Positions 3,666 through 45,156 of a DNA stretch of 62,881 nt are shown here, one piece after another (the stretch's first letter is position 1; the number at the start of each line of letters is the position of its first letter). Location: NCBI GenBank assembly GCA_041650035.1, contig JBAZLY010000004.1, positions 1 to 62,881 of the forward strand. The letters run 5' to 3'. Source of the DNA: Candidatus Omnitrophota bacterium. GTDB lineage: Bacteria; Omnitrophota; Gorgyraeia; JABMRG01. Under the pieces are notes generated by a model. That model was not told the DNA's origin. It did not search any database and saw only the letters and a program-made list of their open reading frames with translations. Both the position numbers and the translations under genes were made by a program.

Positions 3666-4019
3666 ATGTCAAAAGGTGTTAAGGTTGGGGTGATTTGCGT
3701 TTTGGTATTGTGTGTTGCCGCGATAGCTTTGCCTGTCTTTGCGCAGGAAGGCAGCGTGATTGAGAAAATGGGCAAGAAGCTTGGCAGGGGTATAGTCAAC
3801 ATCGCGACAGGCTGGGTAGAATTACCGAAAAATATATACGATATAAGCGTTGAAAAAAATAATCCGCTCATGGGTATTACTTACGGAACATTAAAAGGCC
3901 TGGGCATGACTGTGGTCAGGACCGGCGCAGGCGCGTATGATACTGTGACGTTCTTATTCCCTGTCCCGCAGGATTACCAGCCGATACTGCAGCCTGAATT
4001 TGTGTTTGAGGAGAAATAA
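3666..4019 (+). CDS. small secreted protein resembling exosortase system-associated TIGR04073 family
   Basis: Strong RBS (AAAGGAGGAAGG) and a signal peptide ending VFAQE. Contains KLGRGIVNIATGWVELPKNIY ... RTGAGAYDTVTFLFPVP, the pattern I associate with TIGR04073. Confidence 0.65.
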   Translation: MSKGVKVGVICVLVLCVAAIALPVFAQEGSVIEKMGKKLGRGIVNIATGWVELPKNIYDISVEKNNPLMGITYGTLKGLGMTVVRTGAGAYDTVTFLFPVPQDYQPILQPEFVFEEK

Positions 4020-4051
4020 TACCATAACAGCGATATCCGTTGAAAATGGCT

Positions 4052-4106
4052 AAAACGAGGCAATAAAAACAAACCGAACTGGAGTTTATTGCTTCGTTTT
4101 ATTTTA
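4052..4106 (+). terminator. intrinsic terminator hairpin
   Basis: A 16-bp stem pairs 4052-4067 (AAAACGAGGCAATAAA) with 4085-4100 (TTTATTGCTTCGTTTT), with one G-U pair and a 17-nt loop, followed by ATTTT. Confidence 0.6.
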
Positions 4107-4120
4107 GAAGGCAGCATATT

Positions 4121-4537
4121 ATGGGTATATCCGGTAAAGGCAGGGAGCGCAGGTCCAACAATCGTAAGACAGGTTCGGATGAGAAGAGGAATTATATAAG
4201 GGCAGATGTCTCTGTCCCGATGATAATTTATGTGCAGAGAAAGACCGGTCCTGAACGGGTACCTGCCAAGGCCTGGAACATCAGCGCAAGCGGTATGATG
4301 ATACAGTCTCTTGGCCGTTTTAATACAGGTATAAAGGTTGATATTGAAATGACCCCGCCCGTTAGCCCTAATCCGGTGCATTGCAAGGGAAAGATCGTGT
4401 GGGCATCGGAAAACATATCCGGCAGAGGCGGTTATAATTACGGTGTGGAATTGATTTCGATTGAAGAGGATAACAAGAACACATTTCTGAAGTTTTTGTG
4501 CGATTTGATATACAGTAATTCCGAAGGCAATGATTAG
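4121..4537 (+). CDS. PilZ domain protein
   Basis: Canonical RxxxR (RNYIR) and NxSxxG (NISASG) motifs at the expected spacing. Confidence 0.8.
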   Translation: MGISGKGRERRSNNRKTGSDEKRNYIRADVSVPMIIYVQRKTGPERVPAKAWNISASGMMIQSLGRFNTGIKVDIEMTPPVSPNPVHCKGKIVWASENISGRGGYNYGVELISIEEDNKNTFLKFLCDLIYSNSEGND

Positions 4538-4965: not shown

Positions 4966-5026
4966 AAAAAGGTTGGTGTGATTTTTTAAGATACATATAA
5001 AAATCATGCCAGCCTTTTTTGTTTTT
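4966..5026 (+). terminator. long imperfect hairpin / intrinsic terminator
   Basis: 4966-4976 pairs with 5009-5019 and 4979-4986 pairs with 4999-5006, giving about 19 bp with a 2x2 internal loop, followed by T-rich sequence. The hairpin swallows the ATG at 5006, which argues for the 5045 start of the next gene. Confidence 0.55.
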
Positions 5027-5044
5027 CATATTTGGCGGCATTAT

Positions 5045-5782
5045 ATGAAAATAAAGATAAATTATATAAAAAATATAGCGGTCTTAGCCATTGATGGCAG
5101 GATAAATATAAATTCGTCAAAGCTTATAGAAAGTGTCGGATCCCTGCTTGAAAAGGGCGTATCCAGGCTTATTATGGATATGCGAAAGGTGGACTTTGTT
5201 GATTATAACGGGCTGTCAGTGATGGCTATTACTTATAAGAATGTCTTGAATAATAACAGCGCTATGAAATTATGCGGGATTGCCCCGCACATACAGGAAC
5301 TCTTTAAGGTTGTAAAGCTTGATGATGTCTTTGAGATATGTAATGATATTAACAGCGCTATATTCAGTTTTGAGAGCGTCTCAGGCAATGTCCGTGTAAA
5401 GAAGGCGAACGCCCAACCTTTAAGGAGGAGGTTTTCGAGGCTTGATATGGACATTCCAGTCACATACAGGCTCATGTCGCGGGGCAAACGTTGTCTATCC
5501 GGCGAGATATTGACCGGCAGGATAGAGAATATCAGCGGTGCCGGCTTATTCGTGCGCTCTATAAGCCTGTTGCCTCCGGGCAGCGATGTAGTGGTTGGTG
5601 TAAAGTTTAAGAGCGTGCAGGAACCCAGATATTTTAACGGTACGGTGATGTGGCTTGCGGATAAAAATCTCCAACCTTTGCTGTTTCCGGGCATGGGGAT
5701 TGCATTTACGGATATGCCATACCGCGCACGAGAGGATATATTACAGTTTATAGAGAAAAACGCTATCCGTCGAAAGGGTTAA
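5045..5782 (+). CDS. STAS (anti-sigma antagonist-like) domain fused to a C-terminal PilZ domain
   Basis: The N-terminus is SpoIIAA-like (VDFVDYNGLSVM in place of the DSSGL phosphosite). The C-terminus has RxxxR (RRFSR) and NxSxxG (NISGAG). Confidence 0.8.
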   Translation: MKIKINYIKNIAVLAIDGRININSSKLIESVGSLLEKGVSRLIMDMRKVDFVDYNGLSVMAITYKNVLNNNSAMKLCGIAPHIQELFKVVKLDDVFEICNDINSAIFSFESVSGNVRVKKANAQPLRRRFSRLDMDIPVTYRLMSRGKRCLSGEILTGRIENISGAGLFVRSISLLPPGSDVVVGVKFKSVQEPRYFNGTVMWLADKNLQPLLFPGMGIAFTDMPYRAREDILQFIEKNAIRRKG

Positions 5783-5940
5783 ATGGCTGGTAAAAACATT
5801 GAGTCAGTTTTTTTAACCGGATGTTTTTTGGTTTTTTATAAAATGATATAATTGTAAAATTACACATTTAAACTATTGACTTTTTTCATTATACAAGGCA
5901 TATTTATTACGGAACAGGACATAGCTCTTTTATAGAGAAT

Positions 5941-6040
5941 ACGATAAAGGCAAACTGTCCGAAAGGATGGGGCGCAAAGCCGCGAGCCTAAAACCTCATA
6001 AGAGATACAGAGGTTATGGCAGTCGGGTTGCCGATATTAT
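5941..6040 (+). promoter_or_regulatory. cyclic-di-GMP-I riboswitch (GEMM-I, Rfam RF01051-like)
   Basis: AAGGCAAACUGUCCGAAAGGAUGGGGCGCAAAGCCGCGAGCCUAAAACC...GGCAGUCGGGUUGCCGAU matches the conserved class I aptamer core. It has a GGCAA/UUGCC closing helix, a GAAA tetraloop hairpin, the ACGCAAAGCC junction and a second hairpin. Confidence 0.85.
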
Positions 6041-6055
6041 GCATTTGGTAACATG

Positions 6056-6116
6056 ACCCTAAGGCTTCAATACGCGCTTTTTGCCATATTGATAGTTTTA
6101 GGGTTTTTTATTTTTC
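6056..6116 (+). terminator. candidate riboswitch expression-platform terminator
   Basis: ACCCTAA (6056-6062) pairs with TTAGGGT (6098-6104), followed by TTTTTTATTTTT. The loop is large (about 35 nt), so the structure is uncertain. Confidence 0.4.
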
Positions 6117-6131
6117 ATAAACGAGGTGGAT

Positions 6132-6431
6132 ATGAAGAAACAGGATAGCGGGACAGAAAGGACTGGAAGGGTTGTAGCATTCCTTACAAGGTCGGAGATC
6201 GATTATATAGACAGCCTTGCTAAGGATGCCTTGTTTTCTACCGGCCGCAAGCTGTCAAGGACCGACATCATACGCGCTGTTATTGATTGTATAAAATCAA
6301 ACAGGGTTAACGGCAAGGGCATCTCCTCCAGGCAGGGTCTGGAAAAGAGGTTGTATTGTCTTACGCAGACAGCATTGCCTAATGTTGTCTCGGAGATCGT
6401 TAAAATAAGAGGTCACAATGATAATAGTTAA
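6132..6431 (+). CDS. hypothetical protein, ribbon-helix-helix-like (putative small DNA-binding protein)
   Basis: First ORF after the riboswitch, with SD GAGG 5 nt before the ATG at 6132. RVVAFLTRSEIDYIDSLAKD...SRTDIIRAVIDCI fits a strand-helix-helix pattern. Confidence 0.5.
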   Translation: MKKQDSGTERTGRVVAFLTRSEIDYIDSLAKDALFSTGRKLSRTDIIRAVIDCIKSNRVNGKGISSRQGLEKRLYCLTQTALPNVVSEIVKIRGHNDNS

Positions 6432-6723
6432 ATTAATGATGGTCATATTGCTTCTTATGCCTTTTGTATTTGTCGTAACGACTGCGGCATTGTCTTCAGA
6501 TGCGGTGGTCTATTGTCTGAATGGAAACAAGATCCTGCAGTATTATGACGTAAATGGCATTGCCGATTATTTAAAAAAAGTCAGCGGGAATATTGTTCAC
6601 CTGGAAATAGATACCATGCGAGACCTATTTATGCGGGTGAAGAGTGAGAAACAGGTTCTGAACAGTATCCTTAACCGCAAAGGCGATTTTAGCACAGCTA
6701 TACCGAGGAGACGGCATGCATAA
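6418..6723 (+). CDS. small secreted/membrane-anchored hypothetical protein
   Basis: Overlaps the upstream gene by 14 nt. SD is AGAGG. Hydrophobic N-terminal signal or anchor (VILLLMPFVFVVTTAALS). Confidence 0.5.
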   Translation: MIIVKLMMVILLLMPFVFVVTTAALSSDAVVYCLNGNKILQYYDVNGIADYLKKVSGNIVHLEIDTMRDLFMRVKSEKQVLNSILNRKGDFSTAIPRRRHA

Positions 6724-6872: not shown

Positions 6873-7220
6873 ATGAGAAGAGAAAGAGGGATAAAACGTC
6901 ATCAGAGGTGTATAAGGCGGAAGGCGGGGGTAAAGCGGTTTATAAGGATTTTTTCTCCTTTTGTGTTGATAATGCTCCTGGCACTTCCTGGCCTAGCCCA
7001 ACAGGATCCCGGCGAAAAACTTGTTCAGGGTGTCGAGGATACCCTGACCGGATGGACGGATCTTCCGCAGGAAATAGTTGAGACGGCTCAAGAGACAAAT
7101 GCGGTTGAGGGGGTAACCACGGGTGTTATAAAAGGCGCCGGGGAGGCGGTTATCCAAACGGTGGAAGGGGTTGTGGAAACGGCAACCTTTTATAGCGCCG
7201 AAAGCGGTAATAAGGAGTAA
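6873..7220 (+). CDS. small exported protein, distant TIGR04073-like
   Basis: Strong RBS (AAAAGGAGG). A very basic n-region precedes the hydrophobic core. TGWTDLPQEIVET...GVIKGAGEAVIQTVEGVVETATF parallels the GW-x-E-L-P ... TF pattern of the 3666 product. Confidence 0.55.
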   Translation: MRRERGIKRHQRCIRRKAGVKRFIRIFSPFVLIMLLALPGLAQQDPGEKLVQGVEDTLTGWTDLPQEIVETAQETNAVEGVTTGVIKGAGEAVIQTVEGVVETATFYSAESGNKE

Positions 7221-7267: not shown

Positions 7268-7284
7268 GGATGGGGGGCGCGCAA

Positions 7285-7821
7285 ATGTCATTTGACCGCA
7301 GACACAGATTGTTCCAGCTATTGTATAGACGCTATATAGATAAGGTGCGTTCGCGTGTCGGGCGTATCCTTTACAATGATATGTATGCCGTTGACGATAT
7401 CGTCCAGGAGGCGTTTATGCGCGCTTATATGAACATGGAGAAGATATATCAAAAGGATGTTTTTTTAAGGTGGTTATTTACGGTATCACGTAATCTTTGC
7501 CTGAATTATAAGAGGGGGAGCAGCAGGATAGCAGATAGCAATGCCTTTTGCCGGGGATACGCTGAAAGCCGTATCGGTATGATAGCTGACAGCAATTGCC
7601 AGGCACCGGATATGATTGCCGAAAAAAATGAGCTGATATGCATGTTCAGAGAATGTATGGAAAAATTAACACCCAAATACAAAATAGCTGTCCAGCTTTG
7701 CGGTATAGAAGGTCTTTCATATAGCGCCGCCGCCGCGCGGTTAAATACGAGTGCCAATGTTATTGCCCATGATCTTATGAGGGCAAAGAGATTATTATCC
7801 TCTAAGATAGCCATTAAGTGA
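7285..7821 (+). CDS. RNA polymerase sigma factor, ECF (sigma-70 group 4) family
   Basis: Region 2 (DIVQEAFMRAY, WLFTVSRNLCLNYKR) and a region 4 HTH (GLSYSAAAARLNTSANVIAHDLMRAK). The ATG at 7285 is preferred over 7270. Confidence 0.85.
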   Translation: MSFDRRHRLFQLLYRRYIDKVRSRVGRILYNDMYAVDDIVQEAFMRAYMNMEKIYQKDVFLRWLFTVSRNLCLNYKRGSSRIADSNAFCRGYAESRIGMIADSNCQAPDMIAEKNELICMFRECMEKLTPKYKIAVQLCGIEGLSYSAAAARLNTSANVIAHDLMRAKRLLSSKIAIK

Positions 7822-8036
7822 TTTCTACGCATTGCCTCATTATAATAACGCTAAACCTTTCTTGCATTAATCTGCGCGGATTTTATTTTTGAGTGGGAAA
7901 AACAAGACAGTTTTTTCGATCATTGTTATAATGAGTTTCTGCTATTGATAGATTACCGCGCTTATCTGCATGATCTGCACAAGACACCATTACGAGGTGT
8001 TTTCGCTTGACAATTCTTTTAAAAAGTGCTAATTTA

Positions 8037-8725
8037 ATGATGATGCGGTTTAGGTATTTAACCTTGCTTACCTTAATCATCATTCTTGACCCGTCAATCT
8101 GTCTTAGCGCCCCCTGCTATGGGACAAAGATGCCTGCAAGAGGTGAGTTCTTTTCAGGTATAGAGGTTTTTCATATCGAGAGGGATCTCGAAAAAGATCA
8201 GGGTAAGGTCAAAAGCGCCCAACATTTTTTGCTCATCTCATATGGATTATGTGATTGGTTTAGTATCGATCTAAAGGCAGGTGCCGGAGACATAAACAGG
8301 TATAGTGCCCCTTGCAATAATATTGATTACAAGGCGAGATTTGACGGGGGATATGGGTTTAGGGTACTTTTTTTGACAGCAACGATATCAGGCTTGCCGC
8401 GGGGTTTCAGCATATCAGCGTTCACCCTATTACGGTGAGACTTGATAATCAGAAGTATGAGGCCGTTCTTGACGATTGGCAGGCATCGCTGTTGTTGTCA
8501 TACAATTGCTTCTTTATAACCCCATACGCCGGCGCGCGCCTTTCAAGGACAGATTATATAAACTGGATTGATAGCGATCGCAAACGCCATATGTCAGATG
8601 GCGAAAAAGCCATTGGCCTTATATACGGTGTTGACATTATGATCACGGATGAGATGTGGCTTAACGCGAAGGCCGGTTTTTTCGACGCGCAGACTATTGC
8701 GGTAAGCCTTATGACTAAATTTTAG
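8037..8725 (+). pseudogene. outer-membrane beta-barrel protein gene interrupted by a frameshift in a T7 tract
   Basis: ORFs 8007-8438 and 8435-8725 join into one barrel-like protein if one T is removed from T7 at 8368-8374 (…GYGFRVLFFDSNDIRLAAGFQHISVHPITVRLDNQ…). It has a signal peptide and a C-terminal Phe. Confidence 0.55.
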
Positions 8726-37787: not shown

Positions 37788-37976
37788 ATGAAAGCTGAAA
37801 AATATTATTCGGTTAATGAGGTCGCCAGGCTTTTAAGTATCTCAAAACAGACATTGGTGCGCTATGAATCAAAAGGTATATTCCCAAGCGCCAGGCGTAA
37901 TAAAGTTAACGGGTGGCGTGAATATACAGTAAATGAGATTAACCACTTGCGCAAAATAATAGGCAGGACTTCCTAA
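37788..37976 (+). CDS. MerR-family HTH protein, DNA-binding domain only (62 aa)
   Basis: YSVNEVARLLSISKQTLVRYESKGIFPSARR..NGWREYT..EINHLRKI matches the MerR N-terminal winged HTH. No effector or dimerisation domain is present. Confidence 0.75.
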   Translation: MKAEKYYSVNEVARLLSISKQTLVRYESKGIFPSARRNKVNGWREYTVNEINHLRKIIGRTS

Positions 37977-39565
37977 TGCCAAAAAGGGCTGTTGGTATTC
38001 ATATTCTGTCAAAGTATGTAGATATCGCTGAACTTTCAGGTTTACGGTCTAGTCCGGTACTTTTAAGCTTCAGGAGGCAGGAGATCGTCCCGGGGATTAT
38101 TGGTATTGGTCATGATGATGAAAAGGATGCCTCCTTGGCCTGGTGTGAGGGGGTGGTATCTGCCATAAGAAACGGCATTGAGGGCCTTAGGTCCAAACCC
38201 CAATTGATTTATACCGTATTACCGTCAGGTGATACGATGGTCAGGTATTTTGATATGCCGTTTTTGCCTAAATCCGAGCAGGCGCAGGCGGTGCGCTTTG
38301 AGGCAAAAAAATATGTACCCTTCAGGCTTGATGAGATAATAAGTGATTTCAAGGTTCAGGCCTCATCTAAAGCCAAACGATCGATAGATATATTCTTTGT
38401 GGCAGCAACAAAGGATAGGTTGAATAATCATACCGCCAAATTTACGGCGGCAGGTTTGCACGCGGCCGGAATTGATATTATCCCTTTTGCTTTATTGCGC
38501 GTCCTGATGCTGCATAAAAAGGCGGAAGCAAAAAACGGACTGGTCATACTGTATGTTGATGACGATAAAAAGAGTATTTCGATAAGTGTAATAAGATCAG
38601 GTATCCCATTTATGAGCAGGGACATCAAGGTATTAACTGACGATAAGGAGTCTTTATTTGAAAAGGTCGCCAGCGAGTTGATGGTATCGATTGATTATTA
38701 TCGCAGGCAAAGGATAGGTTGTGACGTCTCTAAAATAGTTATTTGCGGTGAACGGCTTTTTGCCGGGCTGGATGCTTATATTTCTAATGAGTTGAAGGTC
38801 GCTACCGAGACCTTGTATGATTTTACGAAAATTAAGAATGCCGACAAGGTGCCTTCTACCGCCATTACAGCTATCGGGGCCGCGATGGGAGGGCTCGGAA
38901 GATCAAACTACAGTGTTAATCTTTCACCTTTTCATGCTATTGCTGAAAAGAGGCAGGCCTTAAATGTCCGGGCGGCGCAGGTTATAGCGGCCGCGGTTAT
39001 TATATTGGCTACCTATCTGTTGTCCGGCTTGTTTTTGAAAAGCGGTTATCTTGAATTAAGCCAATTGGAACAGATCTCCGCGTCTTTGCCGATAACGACC
39101 TCGGTATTGGACGTGGAAACTCTTATAAAGAAAAAGGGTGCCATGCTGGAGGCATTTAGATGTCTTCAGCTTATTCAATCAGACCGTATCTCCTTAGCCA
39201 GGCAGTTGTCCGCGATAACCGCTCGTGTTGAAGAGCAAAGAAAACAAGCGGGCGGCCTATGGATAGATAAGATCGCGTTCAAGGAGACTATCATAACGAA
39301 CGAATCTAAATTGCCTGCCGGTATCAACAGGGAAATGGTTTTGTCGGGGGGCGCTTTCTCAAGTGATGATGCCAGGGAGATGGATTATGTCCACAGTTTT
39401 CTTGGCGCTCTTAAGTCGGATGGGGATTTTACGCATTACTTTAAGGACATAGAGCTGGGTTCTGTCGATAGGACAAATATATCGGACAAATGGGTCGCAA
39501 GTTTTTCTATATTAGCTTATTCACAGCCGCCCAAGACAGCGCAAGGGCGCAGGGGCAGGAGATAG
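37976..39565 (+). CDS. PilM-like actin-fold ATPase fused to a PilN-like TM/periplasmic module (GspL-like architecture)
   Basis: The N-terminal ~330 aa are PilM-like, followed by VNLSPF (compare the PilN INLLP motif), one TM helix (VIAAAVIILATYLLSGLFL) and a ~170-aa periplasmic part. The start overlaps the MerR stop (TAATG). Confidence 0.7.
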   Translation: MPKRAVGIHILSKYVDIAELSGLRSSPVLLSFRRQEIVPGIIGIGHDDEKDASLAWCEGVVSAIRNGIEGLRSKPQLIYTVLPSGDTMVRYFDMPFLPKSEQAQAVRFEAKKYVPFRLDEIISDFKVQASSKAKRSIDIFFVAATKDRLNNHTAKFTAAGLHAAGIDIIPFALLRVLMLHKKAEAKNGLVILYVDDDKKSISISVIRSGIPFMSRDIKVLTDDKESLFEKVASELMVSIDYYRRQRIGCDVSKIVICGERLFAGLDAYISNELKVATETLYDFTKIKNADKVPSTAITAIGAAMGGLGRSNYSVNLSPFHAIAEKRQALNVRAAQVIAAAVIILATYLLSGLFLKSGYLELSQLEQISASLPITTSVLDVETLIKKKGAMLEAFRCLQLIQSDRISLARQLSAITARVEEQRKQAGGLWIDKIAFKETIITNESKLPAGINREMVLSGGAFSSDDAREMDYVHSFLGALKSDGDFTHYFKDIELGSVDRTNISDKWVASFSILAYSQPPKTAQGRRGRR

Positions 39566-39567
39566 GC

Positions 39568-40134
39568 ATGCAGATAAGGTTTAATATAGATCCTAAAAAG
39601 AAGTCGATATTGATATCGCTTGTCATCCTGTCCCTTGCCTTCTTCGCGTGCTTGAACATAGCCGGCGCGCAGACGAGAAAGAGGGAATCTATTAAAAAGA
39701 AGGTCTTGGATCTTTCAAAAAAGATAGTCTTACGGCAGGACATTGAAAAGATAGAAAGGATCAGGCAGGAATATGCGAGGTTTTTTCATGAAGATATAGA
39801 TCGTCAGGTATTAAGGTCGGTTATATTAGCCGTTGCCTCGGAATTAAATGTGGATATAATATCCGCCAAACCGCTTGAAAGAGATGTCTTGGGTGCCGTA
39901 TCAAGAGAGTCTATAGAGCTTTCATTCAGATGCTCCTTTAACGATCTCGGATTATTCATCTCCAGGATCGAGGGTATGCCTGTGATCACTAAAATAGAAT
40001 CGTTATTAATACAAGGGGATTCCGTTAACGAGGGTTCCGGCGCGGCGGCCGCGGGTCTTAAGGGAAAGATCTATGAATCGGATTATGATGTATCTGCTAC
40101 CATGGTGGTCGCGGGGTATTCGATAAACGGTTGA
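39568..40134 (+). CDS. PilO/GspM-like pilus assembly protein
   Basis: Short cytoplasmic tail, one TM segment, a coiled coil, then an alpha/beta domain. Its position after the PilMN gene supports the call. Confidence 0.5.
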   Translation: MQIRFNIDPKKKSILISLVILSLAFFACLNIAGAQTRKRESIKKKVLDLSKKIVLRQDIEKIERIRQEYARFFHEDIDRQVLRSVILAVASELNVDIISAKPLERDVLGAVSRESIELSFRCSFNDLGLFISRIEGMPVITKIESLLIQGDSVNEGSGAAAAGLKGKIYESDYDVSATMVVAGYSING

Positions 40135-40136
40135 TT

Positions 40137-40598
40137 ATGGATAAGGAAAAGAGACAGCAAATAATATTAGTTATCATAATACCCGTATTTTTTTTGGGCC
40201 TTATATATATGCACTCACGGCAGGCCTCGGCCCCAGGCGTTCCCGGCAGCAATGAGGAGATGCTTAAACCCGATGCCGGTATTGATGCCATACCGATGCC
40301 GGACGAGGGAATGGATTTTAGTTACACCCCCGGCGGAGAAAACCCTTTTATAAATCTCCTGCAGACGCATCTTGCCTCTCTGAACAAGAAAGCGCCGGGT
40401 GAAAACGCCTCTTTGCCGATGCCCCCTCTGCTTGTTGAGGGTATGATATGGAACACCGATAATCCGCAGGCTATAATTAATGGCAAGGTCTTAAACAGCG
40501 GGGACATCATTGATGGTGTGCGCATTGTTAATATCGAGAAGCAGGGCATAACGATAGATTTTAACGGTGAACATGTGCTGATAGAACGAAAAAAATGA
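40137..40598 (+). CDS. PilP/GspC-like small membrane-anchored protein
   Basis: N-terminal TM segment, a Pro-rich linker, and the C-terminal motif VEGMIWNTDNPQAIINGKVLNSGDIIDGVRIVNIEKQGITI, typical of PilP/GspC HR-like domains. Confidence 0.5.
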   Translation: MDKEKRQQIILVIIIPVFFLGLIYMHSRQASAPGVPGSNEEMLKPDAGIDAIPMPDEGMDFSYTPGGENPFINLLQTHLASLNKKAPGENASLPMPPLLVEGMIWNTDNPQAIINGKVLNSGDIIDGVRIVNIEKQGITIDFNGEHVLIERKK

Positions 40599-40610
40599 GG
40601 AGATACTAAC

Positions 40611-42110
40611 ATGAGGGCAACCCGTAGTATAAAATTAAAAAATGCGTTGGTCTTGACGACGGTTATTTTTTATATCATGGTCGTTGTCGGCTATGCCCCC
40701 GCCCAGGAGATGCGCAGTATATCAATGGATTTTCAGCAGGCCGCCTTAAAGGATGTCTTAAAGGTTTTTTCGCAGCAGGCGGGCCTGAATTTTGTAGCAA
40801 CGGAGAATATCGAAGATAAGAAGATTACTCTATACCTTGACAATGTAACCGTCAGGGATGCCCTCGATTCTATTATGTCAGCCAATAACCTTACCTATGA
40901 ACAGGCCCAGGGCAGTTCCATTTTTATTGTTAAGGAATCGGGTAAGACCAAGGTTGATATGCTGACAAAGGTCTATTCTCTTGACTTTGCCCGGATTGGC
41001 CTCTCCAATGATGACTCGACCTCAAGCGGGTCAACGGATATCCGGCCTGTGGTAGAGCATCTGCTTTCGAAAGGCGTAAACGGTGAAACGCTTGGAAGTG
41101 TTGTTGTTGATAAAAGGACAAACAGTCTTATCGTAACCGCGATACCCGCTGATTTCGCGATAATTGAAGACACTATAAAGAAGCTTGACAGCGTGACCCC
41201 GCAGGCGCTTATAGAGGCCGAGATAGTCGAGATACATACCGGCGCTTTAAGGAATCTCGGGCTTGAGTGGGGTGGCAGTGACGGGACGTTTGTCAGGTTC
41301 ACAGGTCCTACGAAACTGACCCATTTTCCCTTCATAAGGCATAATAATCCGTTTTCCAAGGGTCTGTTAAAGATAACCAATACGGATGATGATGACAGCA
41401 CGGATCTTAAAAACGAGATGGGCGTGCTTTCTCTGCAGGAATTTTCCGTTGTCCTTAAGGCCCTTGAAAGCGAGAATATGGCCCGGTATCTGGCAAAACC
41501 GCGCATCATGTCTCTAAGTAGTGAGACGGCGGAGATAAAGATATCGTCTGATACCGCGATCGGCGTAAAAAAGACCAGCATTACCGATACGGGTGAGGTC
41601 ATTGAGGAGGCGGAGAGGATAGAGACAGGCATAACGCTGAAGGTCACACCGACGGTAAACAAAAAAGGCTATATAACTATGACGATAGAGCCTGAGGTAT
41701 CCCGCGCTGTCCAGTCGTCGTATTTTTCAAGTTTCGTGGATCCGACAAAGAGAAGCGCCAAGGCGACGGTTATGGTAAAGGATGGCCAGACTATCGCGAT
41801 AGGTGGTCTGCTGAAAACGGATGAGGAGGACTCCGGAAGGGATGTGCCGGGTATAAGCAAGATACCTCTTCTGGGAAATCTATTTAAGTCTAAAGGTAAA
41901 ACCAAGGTTCAGACCGAGATCATTGTTTTTATTACGGCTCATGCGATACTCGATGACGCTGATGCCGCACAGATGGCCCCGGCGCCAAAGACCGATGAGA
42001 TATTGGTTAACGAGAAGGTAGTTCCGGACACGGCAGATCAGAGAGAGGCGGAGATACGCAAGACCGTTATAAAGCTTAGGAAAAAAAGAGAATTGGAAAG
42101 AGTAAGGTAA
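40611..42110 (+). CDS. pilQ: type IV pilus / type II secretion secretin
   Basis: N-domain repeats plus the secretin core (VPGISKIPLLGNLFKS...IVFITAHA). Confidence 0.85.
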   Translation: MRATRSIKLKNALVLTTVIFYIMVVVGYAPAQEMRSISMDFQQAALKDVLKVFSQQAGLNFVATENIEDKKITLYLDNVTVRDALDSIMSANNLTYEQAQGSSIFIVKESGKTKVDMLTKVYSLDFARIGLSNDDSTSSGSTDIRPVVEHLLSKGVNGETLGSVVVDKRTNSLIVTAIPADFAIIEDTIKKLDSVTPQALIEAEIVEIHTGALRNLGLEWGGSDGTFVRFTGPTKLTHFPFIRHNNPFSKGLLKITNTDDDDSTDLKNEMGVLSLQEFSVVLKALESENMARYLAKPRIMSLSSETAEIKISSDTAIGVKKTSITDTGEVIEEAERIETGITLKVTPTVNKKGYITMTIEPEVSRAVQSSYFSSFVDPTKRSAKATVMVKDGQTIAIGGLLKTDEEDSGRDVPGISKIPLLGNLFKSKGKTKVQTEIIVFITAHAILDDADAAQMAPAPKTDEILVNEKVVPDTADQREAEIRKTVIKLRKKRELERVR

Positions 42111-42111
42111 T

Positions 42112-43818
42112 ATGCGCAAGTCTAAATTAAAGATTGGGGAGATACTTCATAATGAGGGGTTGGTGAACCAGGCGCAGATTGAAGAGGCGCTGAAGTTCCA
42201 GAAGCTTAGCGGTAGAAGTATCGGGGATATATTGGTTGACAGGGGCCTGATCAAGGAAAACGACCTTTCCAACGCCCTTGCCAAACAGCTGGATATACCG
42301 TTCGTATCGATCAAAGACGGGTCATTGAAGCCGTCTGATGATGACGGTCTCGACAAGATTATACCGCAGTACTTTGCCAGAAGCCATATGGTATTACCGC
42401 TTTCAAAGCACCTGAAATCTCTTACCGTAGCCATTGCTAATCCGCTCGATCTTTTATTAATGGATAATTTACGAAAGATGACAGGCTATGATATAAATCC
42501 CGTTATCGCGACAAAGGCCGATATCCGGGAAACGATATCCAGGTTTTACGGCGCGAAAGACCTTTTGGAGGAGGCTGTCGACAGTTCGTATGATATAACG
42601 GATGCTGGTATCGACGCGTTTAAGAAGCAATATGAGAGTGAAAGCCTCGAGGACATAGTCTCAAAGGCTGAAGAGGCACCTATAATAAAACTTGTTAACC
42701 TGGTTCTTATACAGGCGGTAAAAGACAGGGCAAGCGATATACATATAGAACCTTTTAAGGAAAAGATAAACGTGCGGTTTAGGATCGACGGGATATTGCA
42801 TCAGATAGCGCCTCCCTCACAACATCTCCTGCCCGCGCTGATATCAAGGATAAAGATCCTCTCTAAAATGGATATTGCTGAAAAAAGACTGCCGCAGGAC
42901 GGCGGTTTTACCGTAAAGATTGAGGACAGACCTATTGATTTGAGGGTATCTGTTGTGCCAACCCTATTTGGTGAAAAGGCTGTGCTAAGGATACTTGACA
43001 AGGGTGCCGTGTCTTTCGAACTGGATAAGCTTGGTTTTTCGGAAAAACACCTTAATAGTTTCAAATCGGCAATAACAAGGCCTTATGGCCTTATATTTGT
43101 GACAGGACCTACCGGAAGCGGAAAGTCAACCACGCTTTATTCGGCCTTGAATTATATCATGACTCCAAAAAAGAACATTATGACAATTGAGGACCCTGTT
43201 GAATATCAGTTAAGCGGCATAAATCAGGTGCAGGTCAAACCCCATATAGGGTTGACATTCGCTGAAGGCCTTCGTTCCTTTTTGAGGCAGGATCCCGATA
43301 TTATGATGGTGGGTGAGGTCAGAGATATTGAGACGGCAAGTATTTGCATTAGGGCCTCTCTGACAGGCCATTTGGTTTTAAGTACATTGCACACAAATGA
43401 CGCGCCTTCCGCCGTCACCAGGCTTACGGATATAGGTGTTGAGCCGTATCTTGTCGCGTCAAGCCTTTTGCTTATCATGGCACAGCGCCTTGTAAGACGA
43501 TTATGCCCTAAATGCAAGGCCCCGGCCAAGATGCCCGATGCTATTGCCGGCCGTTACGGCATAATCAAGCGGGATATATTTGAGGCAAGAGGGTGCGAGT
43601 ATTGTAAGAATACGGGTTATTCGGGGAGGGTTGCTATACATGAATTGCTTGAGATTACCCCTGAATTGCGCCAGCTTATCGCTAACAGGGCTGATATGGA
43701 TACAATAAGGCAGACCCTAAAAAAATCGGGTATGCGGACATTGGTTGAAGATGGTTTATCAAAAATTACTGATGGCATAACAAGCATTGAAGAGGTGATG
43801 AGTTCCACGTTTGAATGA
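42112..43818 (+). CDS. pilB: type IV pilus assembly / T2SS ATPase (PilB/GspE family)
   Basis: N-terminal GSPII domain, Walker A GPTGSGKSTT, Asp and His boxes, and a tetracysteine motif (CPKC...CEYC). Confidence 0.9.
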   Translation: MRKSKLKIGEILHNEGLVNQAQIEEALKFQKLSGRSIGDILVDRGLIKENDLSNALAKQLDIPFVSIKDGSLKPSDDDGLDKIIPQYFARSHMVLPLSKHLKSLTVAIANPLDLLLMDNLRKMTGYDINPVIATKADIRETISRFYGAKDLLEEAVDSSYDITDAGIDAFKKQYESESLEDIVSKAEEAPIIKLVNLVLIQAVKDRASDIHIEPFKEKINVRFRIDGILHQIAPPSQHLLPALISRIKILSKMDIAEKRLPQDGGFTVKIEDRPIDLRVSVVPTLFGEKAVLRILDKGAVSFELDKLGFSEKHLNSFKSAITRPYGLIFVTGPTGSGKSTTLYSALNYIMTPKKNIMTIEDPVEYQLSGINQVQVKPHIGLTFAEGLRSFLRQDPDIMMVGEVRDIETASICIRASLTGHLVLSTLHTNDAPSAVTRLTDIGVEPYLVASSLLLIMAQRLVRRLCPKCKAPAKMPDAIAGRYGIIKRDIFEARGCEYCKNTGYSGRVAIHELLEITPELRQLIANRADMDTIRQTLKKSGMRTLVEDGLSKITDGITSIEEVMSSTFE

Positions 43819-43929
43819 TGCGCGTCGTCAGGTTGTCGACAATCATAGACGGATACAAAAGCGTGTTGAGGCTTGGCGGTCGGCAGCCTGCCAAGGCCGT
43901 GACCCGTTTTTTAGCGCGTGGGAGACAGA

Positions 43930-45156
43930 ATGACCACTTATAAATATTATGCCAGGACAAGACAATCCGAGGCCAGAGAAGGTTTTATTGATGTGCCCGG
44001 CGAAGATGAATTGGTAAACGCTCTTCAGGCCCAGGGTCTTGTACTTGTTGACTTCCAAAAAACGGTGAAATCGAGTAAGGCTGTTGTTACCGCGGCTAAA
44101 CGCGCTAAGATGCATATAGGCGTAAAACTGGATGACCTTATTACCCTGGCAAAACAACTTCAGGCCCTTCTCGGTTCAGGGATTACCCTTCTTAGGAGTT
44201 TTGAGATAATAAGTCTTCAGATACAAAGCATGAGGCTTTTTGATTGCGTTGAATCGGTTAAAAAGGATATATCCGCAGGCAGCAGCCTGAAGGCCGCCCT
44301 GGCTAAGCACCCTAAGGTATTTTCTAATCTTTGGGTTAATATCGTTGAGACTGGTGAGGCGACAGGCCAACTCCCTTTCGCTCTTGAGCAGCTTGTAACC
44401 TATCTCGAATCGTCATCGTCTCTGCAGAGAAGGATTAAGAGCGCGCTTGTATATCCCATGATAGTCCTTTGTGTTGCCGCGTGCGCTGTAATCGTGTTCA
44501 TCGTCAAGATAATACCGATGTTTGCCGGTATATACGCCGGTTTCGGCGCCCAGTTACCGGTATTTACCCAGGCCGTCTTTGATGTCTGCCTAAGCATTAA
44601 GCGATATCTGGTATTATTTGCTGCTGTCATAGTGTTTTCTATAATCGGACTGCGTTATTACGCGAATACGCACGAAGGCCGTAGGCGTATTGACATGATG
44701 CTATTGAATATTTTTTTGATAGGCGATATTATCAAGGAGATCGCAGCTGTGAGGTTCGCCTCGGGTCTCAATATGCTTATAAAAAGCGGGACACCGATCT
44801 TGCACGCGCTTGATATAACTATTGAGACAGCCGGCAATGTCATTATAAAAGAGATGCTCCAGGTTGTTAAAGAGAATGTTCGAGAGGGCAGGTCGATGGC
44901 GGAGCCTCTTATAAAATGCGGGATATTTCCCGAGATGCTCGCGCATATGGTTGCGGTTGGCGAAGAATCGGGAGAGCTTGCCAATATGCTTGATAGTGCA
45001 GGCAGGTTTTATGGTGAAAGGGTGGACGCCACGGTGGCCAGATTCGCTACTATGTTTGAGCCCATACTTATAGTGGTAATCGGCGCTATAGTTGGAACCC
45101 TTGTGATAGCAATGTTTTTGCCTATATTTGGCATCTCAACCGCTATAAGCGGGTAG
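43930..45156 (+). CDS. pilC: type IV pilus / T2SS inner-membrane platform protein (PilC/GspF family)
   Basis: Two T2SSF repeats and three TM regions. The MTTYKYYA start at 43930 is typical for PilC. Confidence 0.9.
   Translation: MTTYKYYARTRQSEAREGFIDVPGEDELVNALQAQGLVLVDFQKTVKSSKAVVTAAKRAKMHIGVKLDDLITLAKQLQALLGSGITLLRSFEIISLQIQSMRLFDCVESVKKDISAGSSLKAALAKHPKVFSNLWVNIVETGEATGQLPFALEQLVTYLESSSSLQRRIKSALVYPMIVLCVAACAVIVFIVKIIPMFAGIYAGFGAQLPVFTQAVFDVCLSIKRYLVLFAAVIVFSIIGLRYYANTHEGRRRIDMMLLNIFLIGDIIKEIAAVRFASGLNMLIKSGTPILHALDITIETAGNVIIKEMLQVVKENVREGRSMAEPLIKCGIFPEMLAHMVAVGEESGELANMLDSAGRFYGERVDATVARFATMFEPILIVVIGAIVGTLVIAMFLPIFGISTAISG

Follow-up and report, generated by a model that had tools for sequence, protein, structure and literature searches.

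We analyzed a 62,881-nucleotide (nt) stretch of DNA from a Candidatus Omnitrophota bacterium, referred to here as the window, and found that the gap downstream of its STAS-PilZ gene encodes a class I (GEMM-I, type 1) cyclic di-GMP (c-di-GMP) riboswitch aptamer (positions 5938 to 6038, plus strand), a putative binder of this ligand. The aptamer is located on the same strand as, and 96 nt upstream of, the ATG (6132) of a gene for a conserved 99-amino-acid (aa) protein, with a terminator and a U-run in between. We propose that the RNA would act as an OFF switch for the operon that starts with this gene. The probability that we assign to this reading, jointly for an aptamer in an operon leader, a terminator platform, and the proposed OFF mechanism, is about 0.85. 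The element belongs to an already well-known RNA sensor class and leaves the working principle of GEMM-I riboswitches unchanged. Its main value is comparative: across Omnitrophota, the riboswitch is almost always tied to an uncharacterized 99-aa protein family and also to the TIGR04073 family.

Identity and conservation of the aptamer

An Rfam 15 covariance-model scan was performed over the whole 62.9-kb window and rerun on positions 5780 to 6200. The c-di-GMP-I family (RF01051) matched at 5939-6035 on the plus strand with 80.2 bits (gathering score, 35; E = 3.5e-14; cmscan), and the match was untruncated, spanning model positions 1 to 87 of 87. This was the sole Rfam match at or above the gathering score across the window. 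A clade model built here (R1) gave 75.5 bits at 5936-6043 on the same aptamer, and no second aptamer copy was detected in the window by Rfam or by R1, the next-best R1 match being 12 bits. These data bear out an initial annotation made from the sequence alone, which had placed a GEMM-I RNA in the gap downstream of the STAS-PilZ gene: the RNA that it quoted lies at 5947-6035 (plus strand), and the RF01051 check that it had proposed returned a score far over gathering that covers 5939-6035. Its statement that no protein open reading frame (ORF) explains the gap also held, since the longest ORF in the gap has at most 34 aa. The gap measures 343 nt to a GTG at 6126 and 349 nt to the better-placed ATG at 6132.

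The aptamer and its parts are given below. Base equivalents refer to Vc2, the structural reference from the Vibrio cholerae tfoY leader.

5938-6038 (+): complete c-di-GMP-I aptamer including P1, based on RF01051, clade model R1, and covariation
5938-5943 (+): P1 5' strand AAUACG, pairing with 6032-6038 (CG-A-UAUU)
5949 (+): G, equivalent of Vc2 G20; unpaired, would contact G-alpha of the ligand
5955-5970 (+): first hairpin (P1a; P2 in Vc2), CUGUCC/GGAUGG, strands 5955-5960/5965-5970, with GAAA tetraloop 5961-5964
5973-5976 (+): CGCA, holding C5973 (C44 equivalent) and A5976 (A47 equivalent)
5978-6029 (+): second hairpin (P1b; P3 in Vc2), strands 5978-5988/6018-6029, distal stem 5993-5997/6010-6014
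6031 (+): C, equivalent of Vc2 C92; unpaired, would form a Watson-Crick pair with G-beta of the ligand

The 99-aa protein (6132-6431) was used to collect related loci, to which the L numbers below refer. The protein collection contains some 50 homologues of it. Those that are named come for the most part from Candidatus Omnitrophica/Omnitrophota assemblies, with a single one labelled Dehalococcoidia. Homologues were present in 127 fetched loci. The scan of GTDB species genomes yielded 47 loci, all from Omnitrophota or similarly labelled Planctomycetes-Verrucomicrobia-Chlamydiae (PVC) assemblies, and in 44 of the 47 an Rfam GEMM-I-clan aptamer was found on the same strand, 80 to 410 nt upstream of the 99-aa gene. 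Among the remaining GTDB loci, L036 and L040 gave weaker matches of 31.8 and 43.9 bits, respectively, with the clade model, and L032 is without upstream sequence. Among the 80 metagenome loci, 70 carry the aptamer; each of the 10 others has the gene less than 300 nt from a contig end. The aptamer precedes the 99-aa gene in 115/115 related loci with enough upstream sequence, all in Omnitrophota-type assemblies.

Covariation was analyzed using a structure-blind MAFFT alignment of 42 aptamers (alignment A2). With the Rfam-type structure, 95.7% of the cells were standard pairs, compared to 76.3% in shuffles (0/500 reached the observed value), and pairing fell to 28-45% when the partners were slid by 1 to 3 columns. 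Compensatory changes were detected at 14 of the 20 pairs. They include all six pairs of the first hairpin (6/6, with 100% of the cells paired), 7 of the 10 pairs of the second hairpin, and the inner P1 pair, which is U-A in 32 sequences and C-G in 9. When 77 metagenomic matches were aligned to the clade model, 98.3% of the cells were paired, a value that leans toward the structure since the alignment was fitted to it. The fold with P1 and two hairpins, for which the initial annotation had named covariation as the test, is thus backed by 42 aptamers and by a repetition on 77 independent matches.

Ligand-contact bases and fold of the aptamer

The inner P1 pairs C5942-G6033 and G5943-C6032 agree with the P1 marked in the RF03167 consensus line, and the outer pairs were read straight off the sequence. 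In the Rfam alignment, G5950-C5951 is paired with G5974-C5975. The GNRA tetraloop expected from the sequence is the GAAA at 5961-5964, and both halves of its receptor were read in the second hairpin (CCUAAA, 5987-5992; UAUGG, 6015-6019). A GAAA tetraloop with its receptor defines type 1 GEMM-I (PMC11218506), and the window aptamer is therefore of this type. Two details of the earlier fold had to be corrected. The two-hairpin arrangement and the presence of the junction stood, with the junction reading GCGCAAAGCC and not ACGCAAAGCC (both forms occur among the homologues). The helix GGCAA/UUGCC, however, is not P1, which is formed by 5938-5943 and 6032-6038: the columns of GGCAA/UUGCC are invariant, its GC is paired in the Rfam consensus with the GC that precedes AAA, and the ligand is contacted by G20 and C92. 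RNAalifold nonetheless predicts GGC/GCC pairs.

The bases were mapped to Vc2 by the Rfam alignment, the RF03167 consensus, and the spacing between the G20 and A47 equivalents, which is 27 nt in the window and identical in Vc2, Vc1, and Bc1. The ligand of Vc2 is contacted by G20, which reads G-alpha, by C92, which pairs with G-beta, and by A47 (PMC6140456; PMC4744006); the interhelical C44-G83 pair has been termed universal (PMC4744006). The corresponding bases in the window are G5949, C6031, A5976 (the A47 equivalent, the base stacking between both ligand bases), and C5973/G6022, the last two at the expected unpaired positions. The equivalents of G20, A47, C92, C44, and G83 are invariant in 42/42 aptamers of alignment A2. 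In the set of 77 sequences, the G20 equivalent is G in 72 and the C92 equivalent is C in 74, and those of A47 and C44/G83 are nearly invariant. All RF01051-defining features that are testable in silico are present, and the changes that define GEMM-Ib and RF03167 are absent.

These data also bear on two alternative explanations of the element. That it is a chance resemblance or a decayed, functionless relic has next to no probability: the Rfam match (E = 3.5e-14) and the covariation effectively refute this, the same position being kept across dozens of species-level lineages with compensatory changes. A different ligand, either the 3'3'-cyclic GMP-AMP (cGAMP) sensed by GEMM-Ib or the one bound by the "GGC" variant RF03167, is very improbable. 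It was suggested by homologues, many of which score highest with RF03167, and by the A at the G20 position of two of them (L112 and L036). Cyclic GMP-AMP-sensing GEMM-Ib RNAs carry A instead of G20, and the wild-type G20 of Vc2 disfavours cGAMP by orders of magnitude (PMC6140456); the RF03167 consensus, CGCGAA, has A47 replaced by G. In the window, the G20 position is G and the A47 position is A, within CGCAAA. With G5949, A5976, and C6031 all canonical, the cGAMP (G20A) and "GGC" (A47G) variants are excluded, and on sequence grounds the window aptamer is a sensor of c-di-GMP and of neither other ligand. Membership in RF03167 was likewise rejected. All RF03167-best homologues have A at A47 and read CGCAAA, so their assignment reflects a shorter second hairpin and not the ligand site; on the window aptamer itself, RF01051 outscores RF03167. 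The A at the G20 equivalent, which is the GEMM-Ib-defining change, is located in L112:2272-2371 and L036:2181-2258, and a shift in ligand specificity may have occurred there inside the gene-linked aptamer family.

Compared with characterized relatives, the window aptamer is alike to Vc2 in the G20/A47/C92 set, the interhelical C-G pair, and the GAAA tetraloop with receptor. It differs from Vc2 by GGC instead of GAC ahead of the CGCAAA junction and by a longer distal second hairpin. Its platform is a clear terminator, whereas Vc2 is not known to have a clear terminator platform. GEMM-Ib (Geobacter) and RF03167 share the overall fold and the Rfam clan CL00126 with the window element, which falls in neither, since GEMM-Ib has A at G20 and RF03167 has G at A47.

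Expression platform and direction of regulation

Between the aptamer and the start codon, the following elements were found.

6022-6060 (+): predicted alternative anti-terminator/anti-aptamer pairing, 6022-6025/6054-6057, 6027-6034/6045-6052, and 5948-5950/6058-6060
6055-6117 (+): intrinsic terminator, stem-loop 6055-6105 (about -22.6 kcal/mol) followed by UUUUUUAUUUUU
6123-6134 (+): ribosome-binding site GAGGUGG (6123-6129) and ATG (6132-6134), read from the sequence

The terminator was found by folding positions 5905-6140 and 6010-6140. A simple terminator scanner had missed the 6055-6105 stem-loop, its loop limit being 8 nt and the loop with the inner bulges being too large. A terminator without aptamer overlap was present in 43/43 homologous leaders analyzed; the distance from the aptamer core to its start was 64 nt in L038 and 9 to 26 nt in the other 42. 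When the aptamer pairs of the window RNA were enforced, the full terminator formed. For transcripts ending at 6060-6100, the minimum-energy fold was the 6022-6060 alternative. Its pairs take up C6031, the G20 equivalent, and the 3' strands of both the second hairpin and P1, and they occupy the G+C-rich base of the terminator 5' arm. This alternative lies 9-12 kcal/mol below the enforced aptamer fold with tertiary and ligand energy left out, a gap that we estimate to be comparable in size to the free energy expected from ligand binding in the nanomolar-to-picomolar range.

Similar competition was predicted in the related loci. When truncated transcripts of the 43 loci were folded, the partner of the base of the terminator 5' arm lay within the aptamer in 40, and in 28 of these it belonged to the P1/P1b 3' strand region. 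The competition can be read directly from the sequence in the distant subgroup, where the terminator arm ACCCUAAAA nearly repeats the P1 5' strand (A)CCUAAUG and both compete for one UAGGG. Some further complementarities in the window were noted by eye: CCUAAAAC and UAUGGCA of the aptamer are complementary to the terminator 3' arm, and the P1 5' strand AAUACG is repeated at 6069-6074. These were not built upon, because they are short and folding favoured the 6022-6060 alternative.

Based on this layout, we propose the following mechanism. At low c-di-GMP, the 3' part of the aptamer (6022-6034) would pair with the linker and the base of the terminator 5' arm (6045-6060), the terminator would be delayed, and RNA polymerase would read through into the operon. 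At high c-di-GMP, the ligand would lock P1 and the two hairpins and leave the terminator 5' arm free, so that the terminator would form and transcription would end before the 99-aa gene, resembling the OFF switch Cd1. In the latter, which is located in the leader of the Clostridioides difficile flagellar operon, the aptamer and the terminator coexist and compete with an anti-terminator (PMC9262584). Since the aptamer and terminator of the window are also compatible and its predicted anti-terminator resembles that of Cd1, we favour the OFF direction: given that the RNA is a working switch, high c-di-GMP probably leads to termination.

Cd1 is alike in combining a GEMM-I aptamer with a separate, compatible terminator and, as predicted for the window, a competing anti-terminator (PMC9262584). 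It differs in host and target: Cd1 belongs to the Firmicutes and controls flagellar genes, whereas the window element is found in Omnitrophota-type metagenome-assembled genomes upstream of genes for the 99-aa protein, a TIGR04073 protein, and an extracytoplasmic function (ECF)-type sigma factor. Further, the terminator stem of the window is unusually long (51 nt), and its OFF behaviour is a predicted one. Bc1 of the Bacillus cereus group is also a type 1 aptamer with a terminator-based platform that represses the downstream gene (PMC11218506). Its platform of about 220 nt confers dual transcription-translation regulation, in contrast to the single terminator and the 96-nt platform of the window (PMC11218506). 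The dual terminators of Bc1 (PMC11218506) are resembled by many distant homologues of the window element. Tandem intrinsic terminators were seen in the first ~100 nt past the aptamer in L021, L023, L026, L031, L037, L039, L042, L045-L048, L050, and L052.

Several points weigh against the OFF switch as proposed. Bc1 and some other well-conserved GEMM-I elements were unresponsive to c-di-GMP in vitro (PMC11218506), and c-di-GMP binding by the window RNA and its effect on expression are deduced from its sequence. The anti-terminator of the window is predicted from minimum-energy folding. Against shuffled controls, the duplex of the switching region with the terminator arm was clearly better than chance (<=0.05) in only 13 of the 43 loci, and within the window's own subgroup the predicted partner of that arm differs from one locus to the next. 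Moreover, the terminator is favoured at full length either way (-60.1 vs. -48.8 kcal/mol, with or without the aptamer), and therefore any control must be kinetic. Considering the modest shuffle control and the varying partners, we infer the direction of regulation, as we do ligand binding and the extent of the regulated transcript.

The opposite polarity, in which c-di-GMP would prevent termination (ON), for example by interference of a freed 6045-6057 segment with the terminator, is unlikely. The GEMM-I family holds both ON and OFF switches (PMC9262584), and in the full-length minimum-energy fold of the window RNA a 6027-6034/6045-6052 hairpin disrupts the aptamer and coexists with the terminator, so a ligand-free state with a terminator is possible. 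However, terminator-based ON switches such as pilM need strand sharing (PMC9262584), and the terminator overlaps the P1 3' strand in 0/43 loci (linker, 9-64 nt). Enforcing the aptamer leaves the terminator intact, and in the distant subgroup the P1 3' strand is the only evident competitor of the terminator arm. Even less probable is that premature termination is not the main gate and that the RNA instead acts on translation or RNA stability, or that the terminated leader serves as a small RNA. One report (bioRxiv 10.1101/617340) describes control of an upstream small RNA by Vc2 at the level of stability, and in the minimum-energy fold of the window a small hairpin (6111-6139) encloses the ribosome-binding site and the start codon. 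But this hairpin shares 0 nucleotides with the aptamer, so that nothing ties it to the ligand, and the strong terminator with a U-run in 43/43 loci points to transcriptional control. Taken together, we favour termination at high c-di-GMP.

Downstream genes and the surrounding locus

The genes downstream and upstream of the riboswitch, together with a candidate promoter, are listed here.

6132-6431 (+): first controlled gene, conserved 99-aa protein with the invariant motif KDALFSTG-x-KLSRT
6418-6723 (+): second gene, 101 aa, hydrophobic N-terminus, 14-nt overlap with the first gene
6873-7220 (+): gene for a TIGR04073 exosortase-system-associated small protein (NCBIfam, 54.3 bits; cut-off, 50)
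7270-7821 (+): gene for an ECF-type sigma factor (Pfam Sigma70_r2, Sigma70_r4_2), syntenic in 11 loci
5876-5904 (+): candidate sigma-70-type promoter TTGACT-17-CATATT, from a consensus scan (9/12 matches, weak)
56-1249: GAF + HD_5 (HD-GYP type) gene
1738-2283 and 4121-4537: PilZ genes
5006-5782: STAS + PilZ gene, upstream of the riboswitch gap

Gene callers on other assemblies start the 99-aa product at the same ATG. No relatives of this protein were detected in Pfam, NCBIfam, a PDB sequence profile search, or Foldseek. Its AlphaFold2 model is all-helical, with a mean predicted local distance difference test (pLDDT) score of 76.5. A ribbon-helix-helix DNA binder was considered and was unsupported, as Pfam, NCBIfam, the PDB profile search, and Foldseek (best E, 1.6) all failed to return one. 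Residues 38-91, which contain a D-x-N-G-x-G segment, showed a weak, nonsignificant resemblance to the EF-hand pair of calmodulin, the top match of the PDB profile search (E = 0.22). In the distant subgroup, the terminator and the 99-aa gene are separated by a conserved basic ORF of about 40 aa (like MKKILHKALAKAKKQHKKHMNFLKALRLFEGMPLFGIRR), which has a ribosome-binding site of its own (L016-L020, L022, L025, L027, L028, L037, L039, L041, L043, L044, L046, and L051; for example, at ~2320-2440 in L018). It is absent from the window.

The 101-aa protein had no family assignment in Pfam/NCBIfam searches, and its gene is conserved solely in the window's own subgroup (8 loci). Most loci that are long enough have a TIGR04073 homologue after the 99-aa gene, either of the 6873-7220 type, of the type of its paralogue at 3666-4019, or both. 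The two TIGR04073 paralogues of the window are small secreted proteins that flank the PilZ/STAS-PilZ/riboswitch block, and only the 6873-7220 gene is downstream of the riboswitch. The gene order of the window's subgroup is TIGR04073 - PilZ - orf4585 - STAS-PilZ - riboswitch - 99-aa gene - TIGR04073 - ECF sigma.

Further same-strand genes encode a DUF748 protein, an 840-aa protein with six PKD repeats, and a DUF1573-rhodanese protein. No convincing terminator was found between 6431 and ~9600, and a good promoter-like site is present at 7904-7932. The ECF sigma gene is possibly cotranscribed with the riboswitch operon. At 8007-8438 and 8435-8725, overlapping short ORFs (143 and 96 aa) without a family match were seen, in the same arrangement as in L007 and L054; they may belong to a single gene of outer-membrane type or represent a conserved pair.

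Omnitrophota is a phylum of very small bacteria, few of which have ever been cultured and for which there is no genetics. A literature search of incomplete coverage returned no account of GEMM-I riboswitches in Omnitrophota, of the 99-aa family, or of TIGR04073 in such a context. Tentatively, and at somewhat less than even odds, the riboswitch may mark a phylum-wide c-di-GMP-controlled module, in which a GEMM-I aptamer with a terminator gates the 99-aa family, usually followed by TIGR04073, and in which the 99-aa protein could be a new regulator or a second-messenger-linked effector. If true, this protein could be a route for switching surface or attachment functions in Omnitrophota-type bacteria. 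The 99-aa family gains its first functional context by the linkage, namely, putative repression or control by c-di-GMP.

The locus is rich in c-di-GMP proteins, as the initial annotation had held: Pfam domains confirmed the GAF + HD_5, the two PilZ, and the STAS + PilZ proteins. Its view that c-di-GMP is read here by both RNA and protein fits the position of the riboswitch beside three PilZ proteins and an HD-GYP-type phosphodiesterase, since an RNA-level receptor is added to a locus with protein receptors and the same signal would be read at both levels. The GAF + HD_5 protein carries the motif HHERFDGNGYV, with GYV where HD-GYP phosphodiesterases have GYP. A T2SSE-type ATPase with an N-terminal MshEN domain is encoded at 42112-43818, in a PilM/secretin/T2SSF cluster (37976-45156). 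MshEN is a known c-di-GMP-binding domain type, and the ATPase is likely a further c-di-GMP receptor in the window. Otherwise, the window contains ordinary chromosomal genes (gatA/B-like, tRNA synthetases, polynucleotide phosphorylase, FtsK, RecA, and a type IV pilus/type II secretion cluster).

Upstream of the aptamer, the candidate promoter at 5876-5904 would place the transcript start about 25 nt before P1. Right after the STAS-PilZ stop codon, a weak hairpin (AACCGG/UUGGUU) with a U-run is present at 5815-5838; it came to light through a RyhB-like match below threshold (16.8 bits). The STAS-PilZ gene probably terminates at this hairpin, and the riboswitch leader would then be a separate transcription unit. 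Loci of the distant subgroup (L017-L029, L035, L038, L042-L044, and L048-L050) carry a conserved TTGACAATTTGGTATTTT motif upstream of P1, with a spacing that varies slightly (15-25 nt). This motif may serve as a promoter (TGn-TATTTT extended -10) or be bound by a protein. Loci of the window's subgroup have CTCTTTTA(A/T)A..AG in common instead.

Additional riboswitches were observed in a few related loci. In L030, tandem GEMM-I aptamers (2210-2278 and 2331-2405) precede the 99-aa gene, and L015 has a second GEMM-I copy (4043-4179) downstream of the TIGR04073 gene. A strong GEMM-I copy on the opposite strand was found in L041 (3275-3370, minus; 72.8 bits). Finally, a thiamine pyrophosphate (TPP) riboswitch scoring just over gathering (54-58 bits) is located about 1.1 kb upstream of the c-di-GMP riboswitch in three loci (L019:998-1110, L025:999-1112, and L028:1108-1221).

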